A stretch of DNA of 64,000 nucleotides from a bacterium (GCA_028282845.1 JANQGY010000015.1:77372-141371); one strand, 5' to 3'; positions 23,140 through 31,257 are shown, counted from the first letter of the stretch. The notes: generated from the sequence alone by a model not told the origin. A program made the numbers and translations.

Positions 23140-23193
23140 CAAAAAGTTATTGTACTCAAAATTGAATTATAGAGATAGAATGAAATGTGGTAA

Positions 23194-24126
23194 TCAATTA
23201 GAATTCTTATTCATTTTCAATTTTACGGTGTTTTGTTCCATACCAGATATATATTTGCTAAAATAATCAATTCTATAAGTAATTCTTCTGTTGATTTCAC
23301 TAAGTGATACATCAAACGGAATTTCTATTTTGCTTTTAGCAGATATTATCTCCGCTGTTGTTCCTATTGCAATTAACCTAAAAGACTGCTTTTGATCTAC
23401 TTTTCTATATTTTTTAAATTTTTCCTGTTCAGCATCCAATAATATATTTTGAGGAATGAATATAAATATTGTGCGAATATTTGCTTCGATATTTCCCGAG
23501 TTTTCTAATATTATTTCATTTATCTTTATTGAATCGCCAGTCTGAGTTGTATCTTTAAAATACATGTTAAGAATAGGTTTACGAGAAAATTCATCAAGTA
23601 GAATACTTTGTTGCTCCTTCCAAATTTCTAATTGTTTATCAGTCGATTCAACTATCTTATTCAACTGATTATTATATTTATTAATGTTTTCTTCAAACAT
23701 ATTTAGTGATGAAGAAAAGTTATTGACAGAGCTATTTAATGTTTTTGTATTCGTTTTGTAATTATCACTTTGGTTTATAACTATTCTATTTAATGTATCA
23801 ATACTGTTTGAAAAATTATCGATTTGAACAGGAAGTTCTTTTAATTTATGCGACAGCTCATCTATAGCACCACCTATTTCTGAGATATTATTTTTATAAC
23901 CTTCCAAATTTTCAAATAGTTTTTCTGTGTTTTGATTTGTGGACAAAATAGTGTACACTGAAATCCATAATGCTATAAAAATAAATATGGTTTGCAGCAA
24001 TTTTGATAAAGAATCAAAATATGATCGGTAATATTTTACAGTATCACGGAAATAGACAATAACAGTTGCAATTATTGCTAGTATAAAGATTATTGTAATT
24101 GTAATTATTAATGGAGATGTTGTCAC
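23194..24126 (-). CDS. Uncharacterised 2-TM protein with long coiled-coil and C-terminal beta-rich domain (island gene X1)
   Basis: 310 aa. The only possible start that keeps the TM helices is GTG 24126, overlapping the X2 stop (GTGA). TM helices span about aa 5-25 and 44-62. An N/S/K-rich heptad region spans about aa 65-180. I recognise no motif. Confidence 0.7.
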   Translation of the reverse strand: MTTSPLIITITIIFILAIIATVIVYFRDTVKYYRSYFDSLSKLLQTIFIFIALWISVYTILSTNQNTEKLFENLEGYKNNISEIGGAIDELSHKLKELPVQIDNFSNSIDTLNRIVINQSDNYKTNTKTLNSSVNNFSSSLNMFEENINKYNNQLNKIVESTDKQLEIWKEQQSILLDEFSRKPILNMYFKDTTQTGDSIKINEIILENSGNIEANIRTIFIFIPQNILLDAEQEKFKKYRKVDQKQSFRLIAIGTTAEIISAKSKIEIPFDVSLSEINRRITYRIDYFSKYISGMEQNTVKLKMNKNSN

Positions 24127-25091
24127 AATGCTGATTTAAACAAATTTTCAAATTCGTTCTTGTCAATTATTTTTACTAAATCGGTTTCAAGCTTTCTATA
24201 ACTTTGTGGTATACGTTCATTTGAAACAATGTATCCTAAATTTGCGTTATTTTCACCAATCTCATACTCTATACGTTTTATTATTTTCCTGATAGTAGTA
24301 TGTGGAATCCTGACGAGAGTATTTTTTACTTCTATTAAAATTTTATTACCCTTGAAAATGATTTCAAAATCATAATGCCCTTTATATATTTCTTTAAAAT
24401 CGATTTTAAGCTTTTTAAACATATTGTGAATATTTTTTTCAAATTCAATACCTGAAGCAATTGTTTGCATTGGTTTAGGTTCAATTGATCTTCCTAGGCG
24501 GAAAAAATATGAAATAAATACAATTGTTATTAATCCTATAATAAATACAGATGTAATTATAAATTGATTATTTATCGAAAATGTACTATTTATGGATTGC
24601 ATTATTTCAATAGTAGTTGCTATAATTGCCGTTGCAACAACAGACGAGGTAAGTGCAATTACTGTTTCTGCATACTTATTCTTTTTTACTTTTATTTCAC
24701 TTTTATAATCATCTATTATATTTTCTTCAATCTCATTTATGTTACCATAAGTTCTTCTTAAGTTTTGAATAATGTTCTTTCTATTATTAGCATTAATAAA
24801 ATCGTTTTGAATAATGTTAGAATAGAGTTCAGATACAATCTCTTCAACATTTAATAAAGCTTCTTGCTTGATTCGATGTTCTCGCGATTTTGATTGAAGT
24901 AAATACTCTATTTCATTTTCTTTATAGTAAGAATTCTCTAATACAATTCTTTTTAATATTGTTGAAATTACATCATGGTTTGCTATCATTGCTCTTTCAT
25001 CTTTAGCGCCAATAGTTTTTTTTCTACTAATTAGATAAATCAGTATTGTGATAAGTATTCCACTAATTGTAAGAATTAAACTAAAATCCAT
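24123..25091 (-). CDS. Uncharacterised 3-TM protein with C-terminal PD-(D/E)xK (Mrr-cat/restriction endonuclease-like) domain (island gene X2)
   Basis: 322 aa with TM helices at about aa 3-22, 143-163 and 176-197. The C-terminal GIEFEKNIHNMF...HYDFEIIFKGNKILIEVKN...LGYIVSNERIP places D241-x12-E254-x-K256 in a restriction-endonuclease-like pattern. Confidence 0.72.
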   Translation of the reverse strand: MDFSLILTISGILITILIYLISRKKTIGAKDERAMIANHDVISTILKRIVLENSYYKENEIEYLLQSKSREHRIKQEALLNVEEIVSELYSNIIQNDFINANNRKNIIQNLRRTYGNINEIEENIIDDYKSEIKVKKNKYAETVIALTSSVVATAIIATTIEIMQSINSTFSINNQFIITSVFIIGLITIVFISYFFRLGRSIEPKPMQTIASGIEFEKNIHNMFKKLKIDFKEIYKGHYDFEIIFKGNKILIEVKNTLVRIPHTTIRKIIKRIEYEIGENNANLGYIVSNERIPQSYRKLETDLVKIIDKNEFENLFKSAL

Positions 25092-25153
25092 AGCAAATCC
25101 AATTAATAGGCTTTCTCTTTCTTCAAATCCCTTGTTATTAATTCTATAAAATT

Positions 25154-26254
25154 TTATTTACCGGCTTTTGTACGATTATCCTTTTTACATAACATTTGGC
25201 AATTTTCTGCAATTGTCTTTCCGCCCTCATGCCAAGGAGTAATATGATCTGCTTCCATCTCAGTAATATCAAATTTCTCTCCACACTTAACACAAACTCC
25301 TTTTTGTTTTTCGTATGCCTCTCTCTTCATGTTATCAGAAAATGCACGTATTGAAAGATATTTTTCTTCTCCTGTAAAGATATACGGATAAATACCTGCT
25401 TTTTTTGTAACATCTTCATCTTGCATTAATTCGGCGACTTTAACTTCTATTTTATCTGAATTATATTTTTCTTTATTAAATTGATTATATAGATTGCCCC
25501 AATTGACTGTTGACATTTCATTTCGATATATTGTAAAGTTCTCTCGTACCCAAGCAATTACTTTTTGGAAATAATGCCACAACTCATCAGAATTCTTGTC
25601 ATTTTGATGTTTTGCCATATATTCAGCAACATTCCCATTATTTATCCAAGAAATTGCTGTTTCAAGATATTCTTGTCTAATTGGTTTTCCTTTAATCAAT
25701 AATCCACCGTCTTTCGCTAATAGATATGCCGCGCAATTTGATTTACTAAATTTTAACTTAGCATCTGAAAGCCAAGGTCCGGTGTAAACAGCATTTCGAA
25801 GCTCTTGATCAGTTAATTTTTCACCCGCTATGTTTATAATTTTAAACCAATCCAACCTCTCTTTATCAGTTCCCTCACAAAAATATATCATCAATTCATA
25901 GTTTAATATTTGGTTTTGTTCTTCATCAGTTAGATTATGAAAATATTTATCTAGATTCCCATCTTTTAAGGAAAAATCTCCATTCACATATTGTCCGATA
26001 CTTATGGTACGTTGTTGACCGTCTAACATTTCAAATCCATCTTTATTCTTTAACCAGTACATAACATTTAGTGGAAAATTTTTCTTTATGGATTTGATGA
26101 CTTCTTTTCTTTGTTTGTCATTATAAACAAATTCACGTTGATATTTGGGACGTACATCAAGTTTGCCACTATAAGCAACAACACCTTCTTCCGCATTATC
26201 TTTATATCCTTCAATTACTTCACGAACAGTAATACGATTTAATTCAATTTCCAT
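25154..26254 (-). CDS. DUF262 (ParB/Srx-like, DGQQR) - HNH endonuclease fusion protein
   Basis: The N-terminus has KYQREFVY...LDGQQRTISIGQY. The C-terminus has CVKCGEKF...ADHITPWHEGGKTIAENCQMLCKKDNRTK (HNH). Confidence 0.9.
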   Translation of the reverse strand: MEIELNRITVREVIEGYKDNAEEGVVAYSGKLDVRPKYQREFVYNDKQRKEVIKSIKKNFPLNVMYWLKNKDGFEMLDGQQRTISIGQYVNGDFSLKDGNLDKYFHNLTDEEQNQILNYELMIYFCEGTDKERLDWFKIINIAGEKLTDQELRNAVYTGPWLSDAKLKFSKSNCAAYLLAKDGGLLIKGKPIRQEYLETAISWINNGNVAEYMAKHQNDKNSDELWHYFQKVIAWVRENFTIYRNEMSTVNWGNLYNQFNKEKYNSDKIEVKVAELMQDEDVTKKAGIYPYIFTGEEKYLSIRAFSDNMKREAYEKQKGVCVKCGEKFDITEMEADHITPWHEGGKTIAENCQMLCKKDNRTKAGK

Positions 26255-26261
26255 TTCGTTT

Positions 26262-27299
26262 TTATATTTTTCTATTTTTTATAATTACTCTTGCATAAGG
26301 CACTTCAACAACTCCATCATTAATCATATAAAGATCGCCATCAACTGCACCTCTTTTTTGAATATTTTTTCTATATTCTTTATGTTCTTCTTTGTAAGGT
26401 TTAACACCAATTTCAATTCCTGAATTGGAAATACCTAATCCAATAATTTCAAATTGATCCGGATTATACTTATCTAAAAATGTAATTGGTACCCCCATTG
26501 CGCCATTAAAGTCACAAGGAATATCGGTATATTTATTTACATTTATAGCATCATAGTTTTCATATTTGGGGTAATCCTCAGGACTATATTTCTTATATAA
26601 AGTAATATTTTCTTTATGTTTTTCAACCTCCAAGTTTGTGAACCAACACGAAGTTGAGACACGAGCTATTTTATTGCCATATTCATCTTTATGATGAAAT
26701 TTTTCCCAATCATCTGGAACTATAAAAAACATACCTACATTAAAATTCGTGTAACCTGTTCTAATATTATCTTCTTTGAACAGTTTAAAAATCTCCCTAT
26801 ATGTCATTGCGTTAGTATTGCCGATGATTAAATAATCCTTTTTATATTTTTCTAATTGTCCTACATATTCACGGAACATAGAAAATGGTGGATTGGTTAC
26901 AACAATATCCGCTTCTTCAAGTAATTCAATACATTCTTTACTGCGGAAATCCCCTGTCCCAATCATTTCAGTAATAAATTCCTCTGGATCAGGCATACGA
27001 TTATTGTTTTTATCACCGGTATATTCCAGTTTATATGGTGGTTCTTGGGAAAACAAATTTGCTTCTTTGTAATGTGTAGCAATTAATTTTTTTAACCCTA
27101 AATGCTCAAAATTTAAACTGAAATACTTTACAAAATTGCTTTCTCTTGGATCGTCGCAATTACAAAAGACCACCTTACCTTTGAATTGATCTTTATAGTT
27201 ACGTAGCTCTTTTTCAATGTCATCAAGTTGGGTATAAAACTCATCTTTCTTTTCTTTACTTGCTATATGCAAATTTTTATTAGAAGACAGTTTTGTCAT
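26262..27299 (-). CDS. Adenine-specific DNA methyltransferase, EcoRI-methylase-like family
   Basis: It has DEFYTQLDDIEKEL..Y...GKVVFCNCDDP and the catalytic VVTNPPFS (NPPF). ATG 27299 is used because the track start is GTG one codon upstream. Confidence 0.85.
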   Translation of the reverse strand: MTKLSSNKNLHIASKEKKDEFYTQLDDIEKELRNYKDQFKGKVVFCNCDDPRESNFVKYFSLNFEHLGLKKLIATHYKEANLFSQEPPYKLEYTGDKNNNRMPDPEEFITEMIGTGDFRSKECIELLEEADIVVTNPPFSMFREYVGQLEKYKKDYLIIGNTNAMTYREIFKLFKEDNIRTGYTNFNVGMFFIVPDDWEKFHHKDEYGNKIARVSTSCWFTNLEVEKHKENITLYKKYSPEDYPKYENYDAINVNKYTDIPCDFNGAMGVPITFLDKYNPDQFEIIGLGISNSGIEIGVKPYKEEHKEYRKNIQKRGAVDGDLYMINDGVVEVPYARVIIKNRKI

Positions 27300-27307
27300 C
27301 ACTTTTT

Positions 27308-27351
27308 AATAAACCTTCTCTTTCATCTACATTCCGTTACGATTGACAAGT
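27308..27351. repeat. Tail half of the bipartite island repeat (copy C), overlapping the 3' end of the 27327-28277 gene
   Basis: Minus strand CTTGTCAATCGTAACGGAATGTAGATGAAAGAGAAGGTTTATT aligns with copy A CTTGTCAATCATAAAGTGTAGATTGAAGAGAAGGTTTATT. Confidence 0.75.
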
Positions 27352-28277
27352 CCTTGCCATTCTTTGGGGTATTTACCGTTTTTATCAGAATTTGATGGCA
27401 CATATATTGGTTTATCAATTGGTCTTAATTTTAGTTCGCCATTTATCAGTTGTTTAATTCTTTTTTTAGATACATCACAATAAGATTTCTCTTTATCAAT
27501 ACCAACAACGTTTCTTTCATTTTTTAAAGCAGCAATTGCTGTTGAACCTACTCCAACAAATGGATCCAGTACCCAACTATTCTTATTTGTAAGGGCCAAT
27601 AAACATCTTTCTACTAATTCAACAGGAAACTGACATGGATGCTCGGTTTTTTCAGGGTGATTCGATTTTACATTTGGTATGTTCCACAGTCCGGTTTCCC
27701 AATCTTTTAACACAATATTCCAAATATCTGATGGATTTTTGCCTTTCGGATTTCCGGATAGTTTACCTTTATTCGGTCCTTTGAAGTGTTTTTTCCCCGG
27801 ATATTTTGATGGAATTCTAACATCGTCCAAATTAAATATATAGTTATCAGATTTTGTGAACCACAAAATTGTTTCATATCTTCCTGAAAATCTATTTGAC
27901 GCATGTAGCCCGTGTCCGAAATGCCATATAATTCTATTTCTTAATTTTAGACCGAATTTTTTAAATATATCATAATAAAAAATATCTAAGGGAAATATTT
28001 CTCCTTTATTTACATAATTTCCAACCTGCCAACAAATACTTCCTTCATTTGACAAAACCCTCACAAGTTCAGAAATTATATTCTCTTGGAAATTTAAATA
28101 TTCACTTATCGTGGTTTTATTTTCATACGATTTGCCAATATTGTATGGTGGTGAGGTAATTATTAAATCAAAATGATTTTCTTCTAAACTTTTTAATGCG
28201 TTGAGCGCATCATCACAAACTATTGAATACTCTATATTTGGGTTTATATAATTAAATAATGATTCTTTACTTTTCAT
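27327..28277 (-). CDS. Beta-class N4-cytosine/N6-adenine DNA methyltransferase (N6_N4_Mtase family)
   Basis: Motif IV DLIITSPPYN is N-terminal and motif I DPFVGVGSTAIAA is C-terminal, which is the beta-class order. Confidence 0.9.
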   Translation of the reverse strand: MKSKESLFNYINPNIEYSIVCDDALNALKSLEENHFDLIITSPPYNIGKSYENKTTISEYLNFQENIISELVRVLSNEGSICWQVGNYVNKGEIFPLDIFYYDIFKKFGLKLRNRIIWHFGHGLHASNRFSGRYETILWFTKSDNYIFNLDDVRIPSKYPGKKHFKGPNKGKLSGNPKGKNPSDIWNIVLKDWETGLWNIPNVKSNHPEKTEHPCQFPVELVERCLLALTNKNSWVLDPFVGVGSTAIAALKNERNVVGIDKEKSYCDVSKKRIKQLINGELKLRPIDKPIYVPSNSDKNGKYPKEWQGLVNRNGM

Positions 28278-28318
28278 AATTAGAATTTAATGAACTTTTT
28301 ATTTCTTTAAACTTATCG

Positions 28319-28555
28319 TTATTGATTAGTATGAATTTCAGAATTATTATCACATTCCTCACAAATAAAATCACCCTTTGGATTAATCCTGTTATTGGCA
28401 ATGCAAGTTTGAATATTGTTCAGGTCAAATAGGCGATTGACAAATTTACCGGAACCAAAAGCGACGCTATTTCCACAATGGTTGCATATCTCGGTTTGTA
28501 TATTTTTTGCGTTCTTTGTGTCTTCGTGGTTAATCAATATATTTTCTTTCTTCAA
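28319..28555 (-). CDS. Small zinc-ribbon protein (about 78 aa)
   Basis: CNHCG...x41...CEEC gives four Cys in two CxxC pairs. Only TTG starts are available; TTG 28555 overlaps the upstream stop (TTGA). The 5' part overlaps a head-type repeat copy. Confidence 0.45.
   Translation of the reverse strand: MKKENILINHEDTKNAKNIQTEICNHCGNSVAFGSGKFVNRLFDLNNIQTCIANNRINPKGDFICEECDNNSEIHTNQ
28501..28550. repeat. Head half of the bipartite island repeat (copy C')
   Basis: Minus strand AAATATATTGATTAACCACGAAGACACAAAGAACGCAAAAAATA aligns with copy B GGTATATTGATTAACCACAAAGGCACAAAGGACACAAAGAATTA. Confidence 0.65.
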
Positions 28556-28938
28556 ATCTTTTTAATAAAATCAACAATTAAATATAAAGCCCCGAAAGCG
28601 GCTCCGCCAAAAATTAATATATTTGATGATAAAGCATTAAACTCATAGCCCTCGGCGTTCATGTATAATATATGTAACAGGGCATGCAAAATTAGAAAAA
28701 TACTTATGCCAATTCGTGTACCATTCATTACTTTTTCATTTTTGCTCGCAACAAGAGCAACTATAGTTGAAAATATGGGGATATGTAAGAATAGAAAGAC
28801 TAATTTACCATTTTCATCCGATAGCCAATTTGTAATTGGCAATACCCTCCATTCATGATTCAGCATGGCGTCCAATTCATGCGTGAATAATATACCAAGA
28901 CCGATATAAAAAATAATATTTAACCAAGATTTAGACAT
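28552..28938 (-). CDS. 4-TM membrane protein (128 aa)
   Basis: It has four hydrophobic helices and a THELDAMLNHEW motif after TM1. ATG start. Confidence 0.65.
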   Translation of the reverse strand: MSKSWLNIIFYIGLGILFTHELDAMLNHEWRVLPITNWLSDENGKLVFLFLHIPIFSTIVALVASKNEKVMNGTRIGISIFLILHALLHILYMNAEGYEFNALSSNILIFGGAAFGALYLIVDFIKKI

Positions 28939-28949
28939 TTAATACACCT

Positions 28950-29050
28950 AATAAACCTTCTCTTCAATCTACACTTTATGATTGACAAGTTTTTGATTGT
29001 TATAATTCTCTGTGTTCTCTGTGGCTTCATAATCTATCAATATACCTTTT
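28950..29050. repeat. Bipartite island repeat, copy A (head plus tail)
   Basis: It lies between the RES gene stop and the next start codon. The head has tandem ACACAGAGA units. The tail has hairpin TCAATC-N10-GATTGA followed by AGAGAAGG. Confidence 0.8.
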
Positions 29051-29058
29051 CCGATATT

Positions 29059-29520
29059 TTATTTAAAAATTCTATCGTCAAATGGAAACGGTGTTTTTGT
29101 TTTAATCTTAACATTTTTGAAATCCGTATGCTTAGGATTTATAAGAATATTGAAGTCGCCTTTAGTTACAGCTGATGGAACCTGCATTAAACAAAATTTG
29201 TTTTCTACTACAAAATTATCACCGATAGATTGAGTTCTTTTTGAATAAGGATTCCACTCTTTCCAATCTTTAGGTAATTTTGAAATATGTACTTTTTTTA
29301 TTTTTAACGAATCGGGTATTTCAACTTCAACCATATAATAATCAGACGGTAAAGTTGATATTGAAAAGTGTACGGCAATCTCTGCCATTGCCAGCGATCG
29401 GTTTTGAGCTGTATAGATTAATTCTGTTCCGGGTGAATTCCATCTTGCTCCTTTTTTTGCTGCACCTTTTCCTGAAAGAGTTCTTAAATATTTTTTCCTC
29501 GTTAAGCGATATACAATCAT
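29059..29520 (-). CDS. RES-domain toxin (NAD+-targeting toxin family)
   Basis: 153 aa with GARWNSPG (R), SLAMAEI (E) and MQVPSAV (S). The start overlaps the antitoxin stop by 1 nt. Confidence 0.9.
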   Translation of the reverse strand: MIVYRLTRKKYLRTLSGKGAAKKGARWNSPGTELIYTAQNRSLAMAEIAVHFSISTLPSDYYMVEVEIPDSLKIKKVHISKLPKDWKEWNPYSKRTQSIGDNFVVENKFCLMQVPSAVTKGDFNILINPKHTDFKNVKIKTKTPFPFDDRIFK

Positions 29521-30017
29521 CAGGCAAAAATGCCATGATCAATTCTTGTTAATTCTCCGATCACCATTTCCTTACCATAAGAATCTTTTAATAAATCCAT
29601 TGGCCTTAAACTACGGAGAGCATAATTCGGCGTTCTTAACCATTGTTTAAATTGTTCTTCACTGTCAAAAATATCATAACCCAATTCAACAACTTCAGCG
29701 ATTTCAATAATTTTTTCTGAATGGATGGGTTTAAAACTTTTTTTATCCAATTTATATCTATTAATTGTTTTGGTAGAGGTATCAAGATATTTAGCAAATT
29801 CAGCAAGTGTAAAGGTAGATTTCTCTCTAATTAGTTCAAAGATTGGGAATGGAATACCGGTTTGGATAGCAATTACAATTAAATGTATATTATTTAAGAA
29901 TTCATCAAAAGTAATGTTTTTACCTTTCAATAAGTTTTTCTGACTTTTCTTTTCAATGGAATTAAAAAATAATCTGATTTCATTGTCTAATTTATCATCA
30001 ATATTTTTAGTTTTCAT
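29520..30017 (-). CDS. Xre-type antitoxin with C-terminal DUF2384 (MbcA/ParS-like) toxin-binding domain
   Basis: It has an HTH-like middle part (TLAEFAKYLDTSTKTINRY) and a C-terminal WLRTPNYALRSLRPMDLL...GELTRIDHGIFA. ATG 30017 is used because the track start is TTG. Confidence 0.88.
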   Translation of the reverse strand: MKTKNIDDKLDNEIRLFFNSIEKKSQKNLLKGKNITFDEFLNNIHLIVIAIQTGIPFPIFELIREKSTFTLAEFAKYLDTSTKTINRYKLDKKSFKPIHSEKIIEIAEVVELGYDIFDSEEQFKQWLRTPNYALRSLRPMDLLKDSYGKEMVIGELTRIDHGIFA

Positions 30018-30037
30018 ATGCAACCTGCTAATTATTA

Positions 30038-30076
30038 ATAGGACTATTGTCCTATATATTATGACATATGTCCTAT
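30038..30076 (-). promoter_or_regulatory. Candidate operator of the Xre-RES operon
   Basis: ATAGGAC-TATT-GTCCTAT (30038-30055) is a perfect inverted repeat. A second GTCCTAT half-site lies 21 bp away inside ATGACATATGTCCTAT (30061-76). The sites are 20-60 bp upstream of the antitoxin ATG. Confidence 0.45.
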
Positions 30077-30120
30077 TTGATGCAAGGAATATTAATTAAA
30101 TAAAAAATATTGGATTAGTA

Positions 30121-30232
30121 AACTTTTTCCTTCTTCCTATCTACGCTAAAACTACGATAGGCAAGCTTTTATTTGATATAATTCTTTGTGTCCTTTGTGC
30201 CTTTGTGGTTAATCAATATACCTTCTCCTTTT
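30121..30232. repeat. Bipartite island repeat, copy B (head plus tail), overlapping the gpsA stop
   Basis: The head has three tandem CACAAAGG units. The tail has hairpin CCTATC-N14-GATAGG followed by AAGAAGG. Confidence 0.8.
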
Positions 30233-31211
30233 TCAGATCGCGCGTCATTAATTCTTTAACCTTGTCAACCGGATTCTCACCGTGGAATAATACCGATTCC
30301 ATAGCTTCAGCTATAGGCATGTGAACTTTGTATTTGTCACGCAGTTGCAGCATGGATTTGGCAGTCTTCACCCCTTCCGCCACCATCTTCATTTCAGCAA
30401 GGATGTCATCCAATTTACGCCCCTTGCCAAGCTCCTCGCCCACATAGCGGTTACGGCTGTGCTTGCTCAGGCAGGTTGCCATCAGGTCGCCAATTCCGCT
30501 CAAACCAAAAAAAGTTTCCGGCTTAGCGCCCATAATTACGCCGAGGCGGGTCATCTCGGTCAGTCCGCGGGTGATGAGGGCGGCTTTGGTATTGTCGCCG
30601 TAGCCCATTCCGTCACAGATTCCCGCCGCAATGGCGATGACGTTCTTCAGCGATCCGGCAAGTTCCACGCCTAAAATATCAGTATTAGTATATATGCGCA
30701 AATCTTGCGATGCAAACTCGTGCTGCACAATTTTGGCGGTTTCGGTATGTTCACAAGCGGCAACTAGGATTGTGGGCATTTTAAGTGCGACTTCCTCAGC
30801 ATGACTTGGTCCGTATAAAGTAACGATGCGCTCCTTTTCAATTCCGCCCGCTTCCGCGATGACTTGGCTCATCGTTTCCAAGCTGTCATTCTCAACACCT
30901 TTAGCCAAGTTCACGATTATTGCATTATCTTTAATGAATGGTACACTTTCACCAATTATTCCGCGCACAATGTGAGATGGTGTTGCCACCACAACTATTT
31001 CAGCGTCTTTTAATGCAAATTCAAGATCAACCGTTAATTCAATCTCTTTGGATATCTTTAACTGCGGTATCAAATTATGTTGGCGGGTCTTCTGCATCTC
31101 GCGCACTTCGTCCTCGAATTTGTGCCACCCAATCACTTTATGACCATTATCGCTCAAATGCTGAGCCATTGTTCCGCCCCAAGAACCAAAACCTAGTACT
31201 GTAATGTTCAT
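30213..31211 (-). CDS. gpsA: NAD(P)H-dependent glycerol-3-phosphate dehydrogenase
   Basis: 332 aa with N-terminal VLGFGSWGGTMA (Rossmann fold) and GLSGIGDLMATC. Confidence 0.95.
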   Translation of the reverse strand: MNITVLGFGSWGGTMAQHLSDNGHKVIGWHKFEDEVREMQKTRQHNLIPQLKISKEIELTVDLEFALKDAEIVVVATPSHIVRGIIGESVPFIKDNAIIVNLAKGVENDSLETMSQVIAEAGGIEKERIVTLYGPSHAEEVALKMPTILVAACEHTETAKIVQHEFASQDLRIYTNTDILGVELAGSLKNVIAIAAGICDGMGYGDNTKAALITRGLTEMTRLGVIMGAKPETFFGLSGIGDLMATCLSKHSRNRYVGEELGKGRKLDDILAEMKMVAEGVKTAKSMLQLRDKYKVHMPIAEAMESVLFHGENPVDKVKELMTRDLKKEKVY

Positions 31212-31257
31212 TGTCTATTTATTATTGTTTATTGATTAATTTTTTGTAATCAGTTTT

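Follow-up and report, generated by a model that had tools for sequence, protein, structure and literature searches.

A DUF262-HNH nuclease and an EcoRI-family methylase as a probable two-gene restriction-modification pair, spliced in beside an orphan BstYI-type methylase

When two DNA methylases and a nuclease stand in a row, do they form one restriction system or the remains of two, and which of them reads the DNA? The question is raised by three adjacent genes in a 64,000-nucleotide stretch of bacterial DNA (GCA_028282845.1, JANQGY010000015.1:77372-141371; this whole stretch is called the window, and positions are counted from its first letter). An initial annotation, made from the sequence alone, described three co-directional genes with gaps of 24 and 7 nt, and proposed that they make up a single restriction-modification (R-M) module. 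The genes, here called M1, M2 and R, are as follows.

27327-28277, minus strand: M1, 316 aa, an intact beta-class methyltransferase (PF01555 N6_N4_Mtase, E=8e-58).
26262-27302, minus strand: M2, 346 aa from a GTG start, a full-length match to PF13651 EcoRI_methylase (E=1.7e-122).
25154-26254, minus strand: R, 366 aa, a DUF262(ParB/Srx-like)-helical-HNH nuclease.

The explanation that fits best as a whole, to which we give a probability of about 60%, has two parts: the locus is a splice of two R-M systems, in a small defence island inserted beside gpsA, and in the spliced-in pair M2-R the nuclease is probably targeted by M2, where the specificity would reside. All three open reading frames (ORFs), their strand and their spacing were confirmed, although the M1-M2 gap becomes 27 nt if counted from an alternative M2 start, the ATG at 27299, which gives 345 aa and is the public gene call. 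The motifs quoted in the initial annotation are all present, namely SPPY (M1 residues 42-45, 28143-28154) and FVGVGS (residues 240-245, 27543-27560), NPPF in M2, and DGQQR and the HNH motif in R. M2 scores 409.5 bits against PF13651 (cutoff 26.4), covering profile positions 1-344 of 345, and both its motif I (FCNCDDP, 27147-27167) and its motif IV (NPPF, residues 137-140, 26883-26894) are intact. On the strength of these profile matches, M1, M2 and R are true family members rather than chance ORFs. Identical proteins are present on other public contigs.

The neighbourhoods of R relatives were examined in 80 fetched loci, which were searched with the window proteins. Most are from Patescibacteria, and the rest include Bdellovibrionales, Gammaproteobacteria, Bacteroidetes, Clostridia, Mucispirillaceae and one Woesearchaeote. 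In 76 of the 80, R is preceded on its own strand by an M2-like gene; in the remaining four, the upstream sequence available is no longer than 882 nt. Even among distant members, at 34-36% identity, two of three sampled have an EcoRI-family gene upstream, and the third has only 534 nt there. The same order, methylase and then nuclease, recurs on plasmids of 7.5-39 kb in Bacillota, Pseudomonadota, Actinomycetota and Bacteroidota, where the stop and start codons often overlap and the pair is sometimes nearly the only cargo. The initial annotation had suggested that the DUF262-HNH protein is the nuclease of a modification-protected system, and this part of it is well supported by the constant company of an EcoRI-family methylase.

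In 50 of 72 loci the distance from the M2 stop to the R start is between -11 and +25 nt. The other 22 have one inserted co-directional gene between M2 and R, and there are no intermediate spacings. The inserted genes are unrelated to each other, and encode RhuM, Fic, Bro-N, T5orf172, an AAA_15/AAA_21 ATPase, DUF2130, and membrane or coiled-coil proteins of no known family; the M2-R junction thus looks like an insertion hot-spot for single genes (loci L022-L076). Type I R-M operons host the same kinds of inserted genes. Across loci, the identity of R to its relatives correlates with that of M2 (Spearman 0.81), which indicates that the two are inherited together.

The family is very large. R relatives fall into at least 8000 clusters at 90% identity, of which the top 120 are 74-87% identical to R and come from many phyla, and into 475 clusters at 50% identity (E<=1e-30); there are 490 matches among GTDB species representatives. 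The family dominates in Patescibacteria and is also found on plasmids of enterococci, lactic acid bacteria, staphylococci and proteobacteria, and identities of 66-76% across phyla point to horizontal spread. From gene order and distribution we consider it very probable that M2-R is an autonomous and genuine two-gene R-M pair, belonging to a very large, horizontally mobile family.

The initial annotation regarded such a nuclease as unusual, and this has to be tempered. The architecture of R is already catalogued in PADLOC, where R matches the REase_II profile PDLC03418 ("Type II REase") over positions 1-365 of 372 (E=1.8e-137) and M2 matches the MTase_II profile PDLC03297 (E=2.9e-110); adjacent, separate methylase and nuclease genes are likewise found in Type II systems. 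There is no NCBIfam family model for R or M2, and the existing names for R are generic ("DUF262 domain-containing" and "HNH endonuclease family"). A literature search found no biochemically characterised member of the DUF262-HNH/EcoRI-methylase pair. However, a pair homologous to M2-R, carried on a 17-kb plasmid of Sulfitobacter indolifex and with an R 55% identical to that of the window, has been flagged as a possible new R-M system (PMC9025767, 2022). PacBio data for that strain showed GAATTC to be unmethylated, and showed a strain-specific asymmetric N6-methyladenine (m6A) motif, GGCATC (PMC9025767).

M1 has a different history. It has its own large family, and in each of the four lineages examined a methylase 73-77% identical to M1 is followed by an overlapping gene for a 203-204-aa PF09195 nuclease. 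This partner matches R.BstYI (PDB 1sdo) over its full length (E=1.9e-71). Two metagenomic contigs from a sister strain (L096 and L097), with about 93% DNA identity across the island, carry in order gpsA, Xre, RES, M1 (96% identical) and a BstYI-type nuclease, and they lack M2-R. In the window, no PF09195 nuclease stands next to M1, as it does in the relatives and the sister strain, and a search of the window for a remnant of one found none (best tblastn E=0.3). Conversely, no M1-like gene is adjacent to R in any of the 80 loci, or beside R on the plasmids inspected. There is little doubt, from these comparisons, that M1 is an orphan methylase and the locus a splice of two R-M systems, because the nuclease is absent in the window and present in the relatives and in the sister strain. 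The three genes are therefore not one module, as had been proposed.

BstYI cuts RGATCY, and M1 would be expected to methylate this palindromic sequence. The initial annotation had also proposed that the two methylases serve one asymmetric site, and had held that recognition of unrelated palindromic sites would speak against this; the expected site of M1 is of that kind. M1 would probably persist as a solitary protective methylase. As a separate observation, the RGATCY sequences are mildly low in the window (observed/expected ratios (O/E) of 0.67 for AGATCT and 0.61 for GGATCC, GGATCT and AGATCC, from small counts), while GATC itself is not depleted (O/E 0.98).

The place where the two systems meet can be seen at the level of single nucleotides, and is marked by two related repeats.

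27304-27351, minus strand: left boundary repeat and recombination breakpoint, from blastn of L096 against the window, a nucleotide view of the junction and a repeat alignment.
25101-25149, minus strand: right boundary repeat, which follows directly on the stop codon of R and is a degenerate copy of the 3' end of gpsA (30211-30259).

In the blastn comparison, synteny with the sister strain stops at 27351, 8 codons ahead of the M1 stop. The two sequences agree through "...AAAGAATGGCAAGGA" (KEWQG). Beyond this point the overlapping nuclease gene begins in the sister strain (ATGAAAATAGCA = MKIA...), whereas in the window a 48-nt element supplies the last 8 codons of M1, the stop codon and the M1-M2 spacer. 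This element is a copy of an island-specific repeat. The right repeat is 49 nt long and 76% identical in the repeat search, and is 85% identical to the gpsA 3' end of the sister strain. M2-R is thus flanked on both sides by related repeats of about 48 nt, copies of which are confined to the island. The breakpoint, the lost nuclease and the repeats at both edges together indicate that the M2-R cassette was spliced in at a boundary repeat; the BstYI-type nuclease was lost when this foreign cassette recombined in. The locus is a clear case, resolved to the base, in which one R-M system has displaced another's nuclease and the old methylase lives on as an orphan.

How R might work is suggested first by its domains, which are the only ones found in library profile searches; these showed no superfamily 2 (SF2) helicase and no PD-(D/E)XK nuclease.

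25784-26155, minus strand: DUF262/GmrSD_N domain of R (PF03235, residues 34-157, E=3.8e-17).
25166-25294, minus strand: HNH domain of R (PF01844, residues 321-363, E=3.4e-12).

The DUF262 domain has both signature motifs for nucleotide binding, YQR (26129-26143) and DGQQR (residues 78-82, 26009-26023). The nuclease end reads CxxC...DH...N...C...N, with CxxC at 25283-25294, the catalytic DH at 25232-25249 and C..N at 25175-25189; it matches PF14279 HNH_5 as well as PF01844, and does not match DUF1524 (PF07510). In an alignment of 55 sequences, down to 40% identity, P36, Y38, Q39, R40, E75, D78, Q80, Q81 and R82 of the DUF262 domain are invariant and G79 is conserved in at least 90%, and in the HNH domain C321, C324, D336, H337, N351, C356 and N360 are invariant. 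The catalytic and nucleoside triphosphate (NTP) motifs of the window R are all intact.

A profile search of the PDB with R matched Gme-HNH (4h9d, E=3e-4), and matched BrxU at E=0.083 through both DUF262 motifs. The AlphaFold2 model has a mean pLDDT (predicted local distance difference test) score of 75, and is confident for residues 200-360, with the HNH domain at about 90 or higher. When the model was compared with the PDB using Foldseek, the best matches to the front part, though weak, were ParB, Noc and KorB structures bound to cytidine di- or triphosphate (CDP/CTP; 6sdk, 7bnr, 7ol9, 8qa9; E=2e-3 to 0.25); the end of the protein gave weak matches to Gme-HNH, McrA and Cas9 HNH domains, and BrxU appeared only at E=0.035. 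Because its matches to BrxU in sequence and in fold are marginal, R on this evidence is a distinct DUF262 branch and not a close relative of GmrSD.

A natural fusion of the two proteins was also found. P0376 (L106, 6001-8067) is a 688-aa EcoRI_methylase-DUF262-HNH protein in a single reading frame, from an organism that reads UGA as tryptophan; the apparent stops coincide with invariant tryptophans of the family. Its methylase motifs are degenerate (NPPF has become FPSF, and FCNCDDP has become FCNAGDG), and no separate methylase was seen on the available contig. The arrangement fits the idea that the methylase fold could act as the DNA-recognition partner of the nuclease. The gene lies in a segment of 22.6% GC beside ABC-transporter genes.

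The second indication comes from how unevenly the two proteins vary. In 73 loci with full-length M2-R pairs, conservation is even along R (0.46-0.93 identity to the window R per 20 residues, with no hypervariable block), whereas the conservation profile of M2 has two variable segments. The relevant parts of M2 are these.

26277-26822, minus strand: C-terminal half of M2, residues ~161-342, resembling a target-recognition domain (TRD).
26301-26438, minus strand: hypervariable, exchangeable module of M2, residues 289-334, between the anchors QFEIIG and YARVIIK.

Across the family the anchors read QFEI(I/L)G and YARI(L/I)IK. Typing of 77 sequences, with module identities taken from pairwise alignments, gave 26 discrete module types of 16-62 residues, each with a characteristic length. 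Modules of different type share an identity of 0.18, while their scaffolds are 0.62 identical. The nearest neighbour by scaffold bears another type in 28 of 64 cases, and types cross phyla, one of them being common to Patescibacteria, a Woesearchaeote and a Mammaliicoccus plasmid. The window M2 carries 'type 2', as do L019, L020, L022, L024, L025 and L062. Genuine M.EcoRI (taken from the annotated EcoRI system on an E. coli plasmid), to which M2 is 50% identical, carries another of the 26 types. Eight R-linked methylases have an M.EcoRI-type module that is 69-94% identical to it, on scaffolds only 51-61% identical.

R shows no sign of following these exchanges. Of the 509 pairs of loci with R above 85% identity, 469 differ in M2 to the point that a variable segment is essentially unrelated (v2 below 35% or v1 below 30% identity). 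The identity of R is 0.771 for pairs of the same module type and 0.768 for pairs of different type, and no 20-residue window differs by more than 0.02. Each alignment column was then compared with module type by adjusted mutual information (AMI), using 9 well-sampled types and a label-permutation null. No R column rose beyond the null, the maximum of 0.15 being at the 95th percentile of the permuted maxima. In the M2 scaffold outside the module, 24 columns have AMI above 0.3, concentrated at residues 161-260, and none in the catalytic N-terminal half is associated with module type. We infer that the C-terminal half of M2 (~161-342) behaves as a TRD, given its discrete, exchanged types and their co-variation with residues 161-260, and that R has no matching element. 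R would probably be without specificity of its own, because none of its positions co-varies with the M2 module types. The site of the window M2 is probably not GAATTC, given the different type of its module. For comparison, GAATTC is mildly under-represented in the window (O/E 0.53, small counts).

A mechanism consistent with these results can be outlined. M2, an EcoRI-family N6-adenine methylase, would mark the host DNA, and R would cut unmarked DNA through its C-terminal, zinc-bound HNH domain. The C-terminal half of M2 would be the exchangeable recognition domain and R the constant module, brought in or licensed by M2 through an M-R complex, in the way that Mod acts on Res in Type III systems and the methylase core on HsdR in Type I. 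The ParB/Srx-like DUF262 domain would be an NTP-dependent switch controlling the nuclease. Should the sites be asymmetric and carry the mark on one strand only, as GGCATC hints, this domain may also provide NTP-dependent, one-dimensional communication between sites. Targeting of R by M2 with gating by NTP has, in our estimate, a little less than an even chance of being correct. It is a possible but doubtful further step that M2-R is an unrecognised R-M class, perhaps analogous to Type III, in which a nuclease combining an NTP switch with HNH and lacking specificity is targeted by an EcoRI-family methylase with a freely exchanged recognition domain. Protection by methylation, the M2-R complex, NTP dependence, the recognition sequence and the position of cleavage are all deduced here from comparisons of genes and proteins.

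Four other explanations were weighed. The one closest to the initial annotation is a single Type IIS-like system, in which R cuts an asymmetric site whose two strands are protected by M1 and M2, one each. Type IIS systems with two methylases exist, M1, M2 and R are co-directional and closely spaced, and the homologous pair may act on an asymmetric motif; but M1 is never beside R in the 80 loci or on the inspected plasmids, its family is tied to BstYI-type nucleases, and the sister strain has M1 with such a nuclease and without M2-R, with a breakpoint inside the last codons of M1, all of which makes a shared system scarcely credible. As a second possibility the same annotation had named a Type IV enzyme that happens to sit beside orphan methylases, that is, a modification-dependent nuclease like GmrSD, with M2 irrelevant to its activity or the marks made by M2 ignored. 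M1 is indeed an orphan; the linkage of M2 to R speaks against the same status for M2, and against Type IV. DUF262 with DGQQR is common to GmrSD, BrxU and SspE, the genes sit in a defence island, and two relatives have an intact R beside an M2 that looks disrupted. Against this are the same-strand adjacency to one methylase family in 76 of 80 loci and on minimal plasmids, the co-inheritance of the two genes (Spearman 0.81), the existence of a natural fusion, a nuclease domain that is PF01844 HNH and not DUF1524, and a match to BrxU that is only marginal, and we consider a Type IV enzyme very improbable. It is also improbable that M2-R is mainly a selfish cassette for post-segregational killing and not for phage defence, with the window R perhaps inactive. 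Members are frequent on small cryptic plasmids and have spread to an extreme degree (66-76% identity across phyla), and addiction has been suggested in print for another R-M module of a small plasmid. Such a role is compatible with an R-M mechanism and concerns only the biological purpose, however, and the window R has all its motifs intact and lies in a chromosomal defence island, while its relatives host hitch-hiking genes of defence type.

The main rival is a classical Type II system with a single shared site, which we judge rather unlikely. R would read one fixed site and all M2 variants would methylate it; the variable segments would be lineage-specific decoration, and DUF262 would serve in DNA binding or dimerisation, with no NTP. 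This would agree with the filing of the family as a Type II REase in PADLOC, with the order and overlap of the genes, which are typical of Type II pairs, with the established ability of HNH enzymes such as KpnI, Hpy99I and PacI to read their own sites, and with the high conservation of R, as expected if one site is kept; moreover, no structure places the variable module on DNA. It is less easily reconciled with module types that are discrete, constrained within a type across phyla, exchanged, and co-varying with a further ~100 residues of M2, which is the behaviour of recognition domains and not of loops. One of the types is that of genuine M.EcoRI (GAATTC), while a 55%-identical pair of another type is found in a host where GGCATC and not GAATTC is methylated. 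R proteins with 85-93% identity accompany methylase scaffolds that share only 62-70%, and reshuffling of this kind would be lethal if R itself read DNA and the specificities differed. The NTP-binding motifs of R are also invariant.

Several results weigh against the targeting of R by M2, or against parts of it. A single sequence shared by all module types would equally predict the lack of co-variation in R. GAATTC is not avoided in loci with an EcoRI-type module (O/E 1.00, against 0.75 in the others), and GGCATC occurs 21 times in loci with a type-4 module, where 28 are expected; as a proxy for specificity, such avoidance counts tell little. The assignment of GGCATC to the homologous pair is a suggestion of its authors only (PMC9025767). 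No experiment on any family member was found in the literature, nor anything usable about the part of M.EcoRI that contacts DNA to read it, and no structure exists for any EcoRI-family methylase. The N-terminal domain of the R model is poorly predicted (pLDDT 34-67), and none of the Foldseek matches of the model to the PDB reaches E<=1e-3. The fusion P0376 is known from one metagenomic contig only, and has a methylase domain that looks inactive. The unrelated genes between M2 and R in 22 of 72 loci oppose strict translational coupling, although Type I operons are alike in this respect. Finally, in two relatives M2 is apparently split over two frames or is unannotated while R is intact (Chryseobacterium plasmid NZ_CP034172.1, L003; locus L109, 2758-3730); either this is a sequencing error, or R is tolerated without its methylase.

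Comparison with known systems helps to place the pair. With GmrSD, BrxU and SspE, R shares an N-terminal DUF262 domain with the QR and DGQQR motifs, a C-terminal His-Me-finger nuclease, the plan of an NTPase and nuclease in a single polypeptide, and residence in defence islands. It differs from them in its nuclease, a zinc-bound HNH domain (PF01844) where theirs is DUF1524, in size (~366 aa, where the BrxU chain has 587 aa), and in its linkage to a methylase, which would imply attack on unmodified DNA; and its similarity to BrxU is marginal, as noted above. Compared with EcoRI, M2 is a full-length member of the same methylase family, whereas R, as a DUF262-HNH protein, is unrelated to the PD-(D/E)XK nuclease R.EcoRI, and the gene order is methylase then nuclease where in EcoRI it is the reverse.

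The proposed arrangement of a constant, NTP-dependent nuclease without its own specificity, directed to its targets by a methylase whose recognition domain is exchangeable, resembles Type III (Mod/Res, for example EcoP15I) and Type I systems. The hint of an asymmetric m6A motif on one strand, from the homologous pair, adds to the likeness, as does the lodging of RhuM, Fic, Bro-N and AAA ATPase genes between methylase and nuclease, which is shared with Type I operons. Unlike these systems, M2-R has no SF2 helicase or translocase, no PD-(D/E)XK nuclease and no S subunit, the NTP-binding domain of R is ParB/Srx-like, and the M2-R complex is a prediction. M2 is also an EcoRI-family enzyme with a C-terminal TRD, whereas Mod is a beta-class enzyme with a central one. 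Like the HNH Type II enzymes KpnI, Hpy99I, PacI, MnlI, Eco31I and HphI, R has an HNH domain and a separate methylase gene. Those enzymes read their own sites, and to our knowledge none of them carries a DUF262/ParB-like domain; in R, by contrast, no part co-varies with the recognition domain of the methylase. The clamp proteins ParB, Noc and KorB share with the N-terminus of R the ParB/Srx nucleotide-binding fold, and gave its best, though weak, fold matches. CTP binding, clamp closure and sliding are features of the clamps, to which R is likened by a weak fold match only. As for M1, it is 73-77% identical to methylases found in two-gene operons with R.BstYI homologues, as in BstYI/BglII-type systems, from which it differs in being solitary, with its nuclease gene gone.

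The DUF262-HNH/EcoRI-methylase pair is very common, yet no biochemical study of it was found. If R is targeted by M2, the pair would be a compact two-gene system that can be reprogrammed through a module of 16-62 residues in a domain of ~180 residues, which would be of interest for enzyme engineering. It would also explain transformation barriers in many bacteria that are hard to handle, and would extend the role of ParB/Srx NTP binding from modification-dependent (Type IV) defence to modification-protected restriction.

The three genes lie in a low-GC island at 23144-30212 (29% GC, against 36% for the whole window). It also contains a RES/Xre toxin-antitoxin pair, a DUF6713 gene and two genes for membrane proteins, and a scan of the island for promoters and terminators gave counts equal to the shuffled expectation. 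The two membrane-protein genes overlap, and lie directly downstream of R on the minus strand (24123-25091, 322 aa, and 23194-24126, 310 aa). The 322-aa protein has a PD-(D/E)XK-like motif (YDFEIIF...IEVKN) in its C-terminal 120 residues and a sub-threshold match to Mrr_cat (E=0.0068, 17 bits against a cutoff of 21), while the 310-aa protein is a membrane/coiled-coil protein. Together they may be a separate two-gene defence module.

Between RES and M1 (28319-28938, minus strand) are a 128-aa DUF6713 membrane protein and a 78-aa cysteine-rich ORF, where the sister strain has only one 67-aa ORF. One copy of the island repeat overlaps the beginning of the 78-aa ORF, which may therefore not be a gene. 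Both of these, and the 322-aa and 310-aa proteins, were considered as parts of the M2-R cassette and rejected, no homologue of any of them being found beside R in the 80 loci, and a boundary repeat standing between them and R.

At the end of the island nearest gpsA, the RES toxin and Xre-ParS antitoxin genes form a complete pair (29059-30023, minus strand; NCBIfam NF049844, 178.5 bits, and NF049845, 116.3 bits, both above cutoff), which is kept in the sister strain. Island repeats were located at 25101-25149, 27304-27351, 28945-28995, 30115-30170 and 30211-30259, with further copies at 28502-28547, 29005-29050 and 30181-30226. They mark every boundary in the series gpsA, Xre-RES, DUF6713-ORF78-M1, M2-R and the 322-aa/310-aa genes, and their ends resemble the last codons of gpsA with its stop (...GAGAAGGTATATTGA). 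The pattern looks like a series of insertions at a single attachment site that overlaps the 3' end of gpsA, but there is no integrase within the island. The gpsA gene (30217-31244) is ~85% identical in DNA to that of the sister strain (L096), and the adjoining island (27351-30136, with Xre, RES and M1) is ~93% identical. The island is thus more alike than the housekeeping gene that flanks it, which suggests either transfer of the island or recombination at gpsA.

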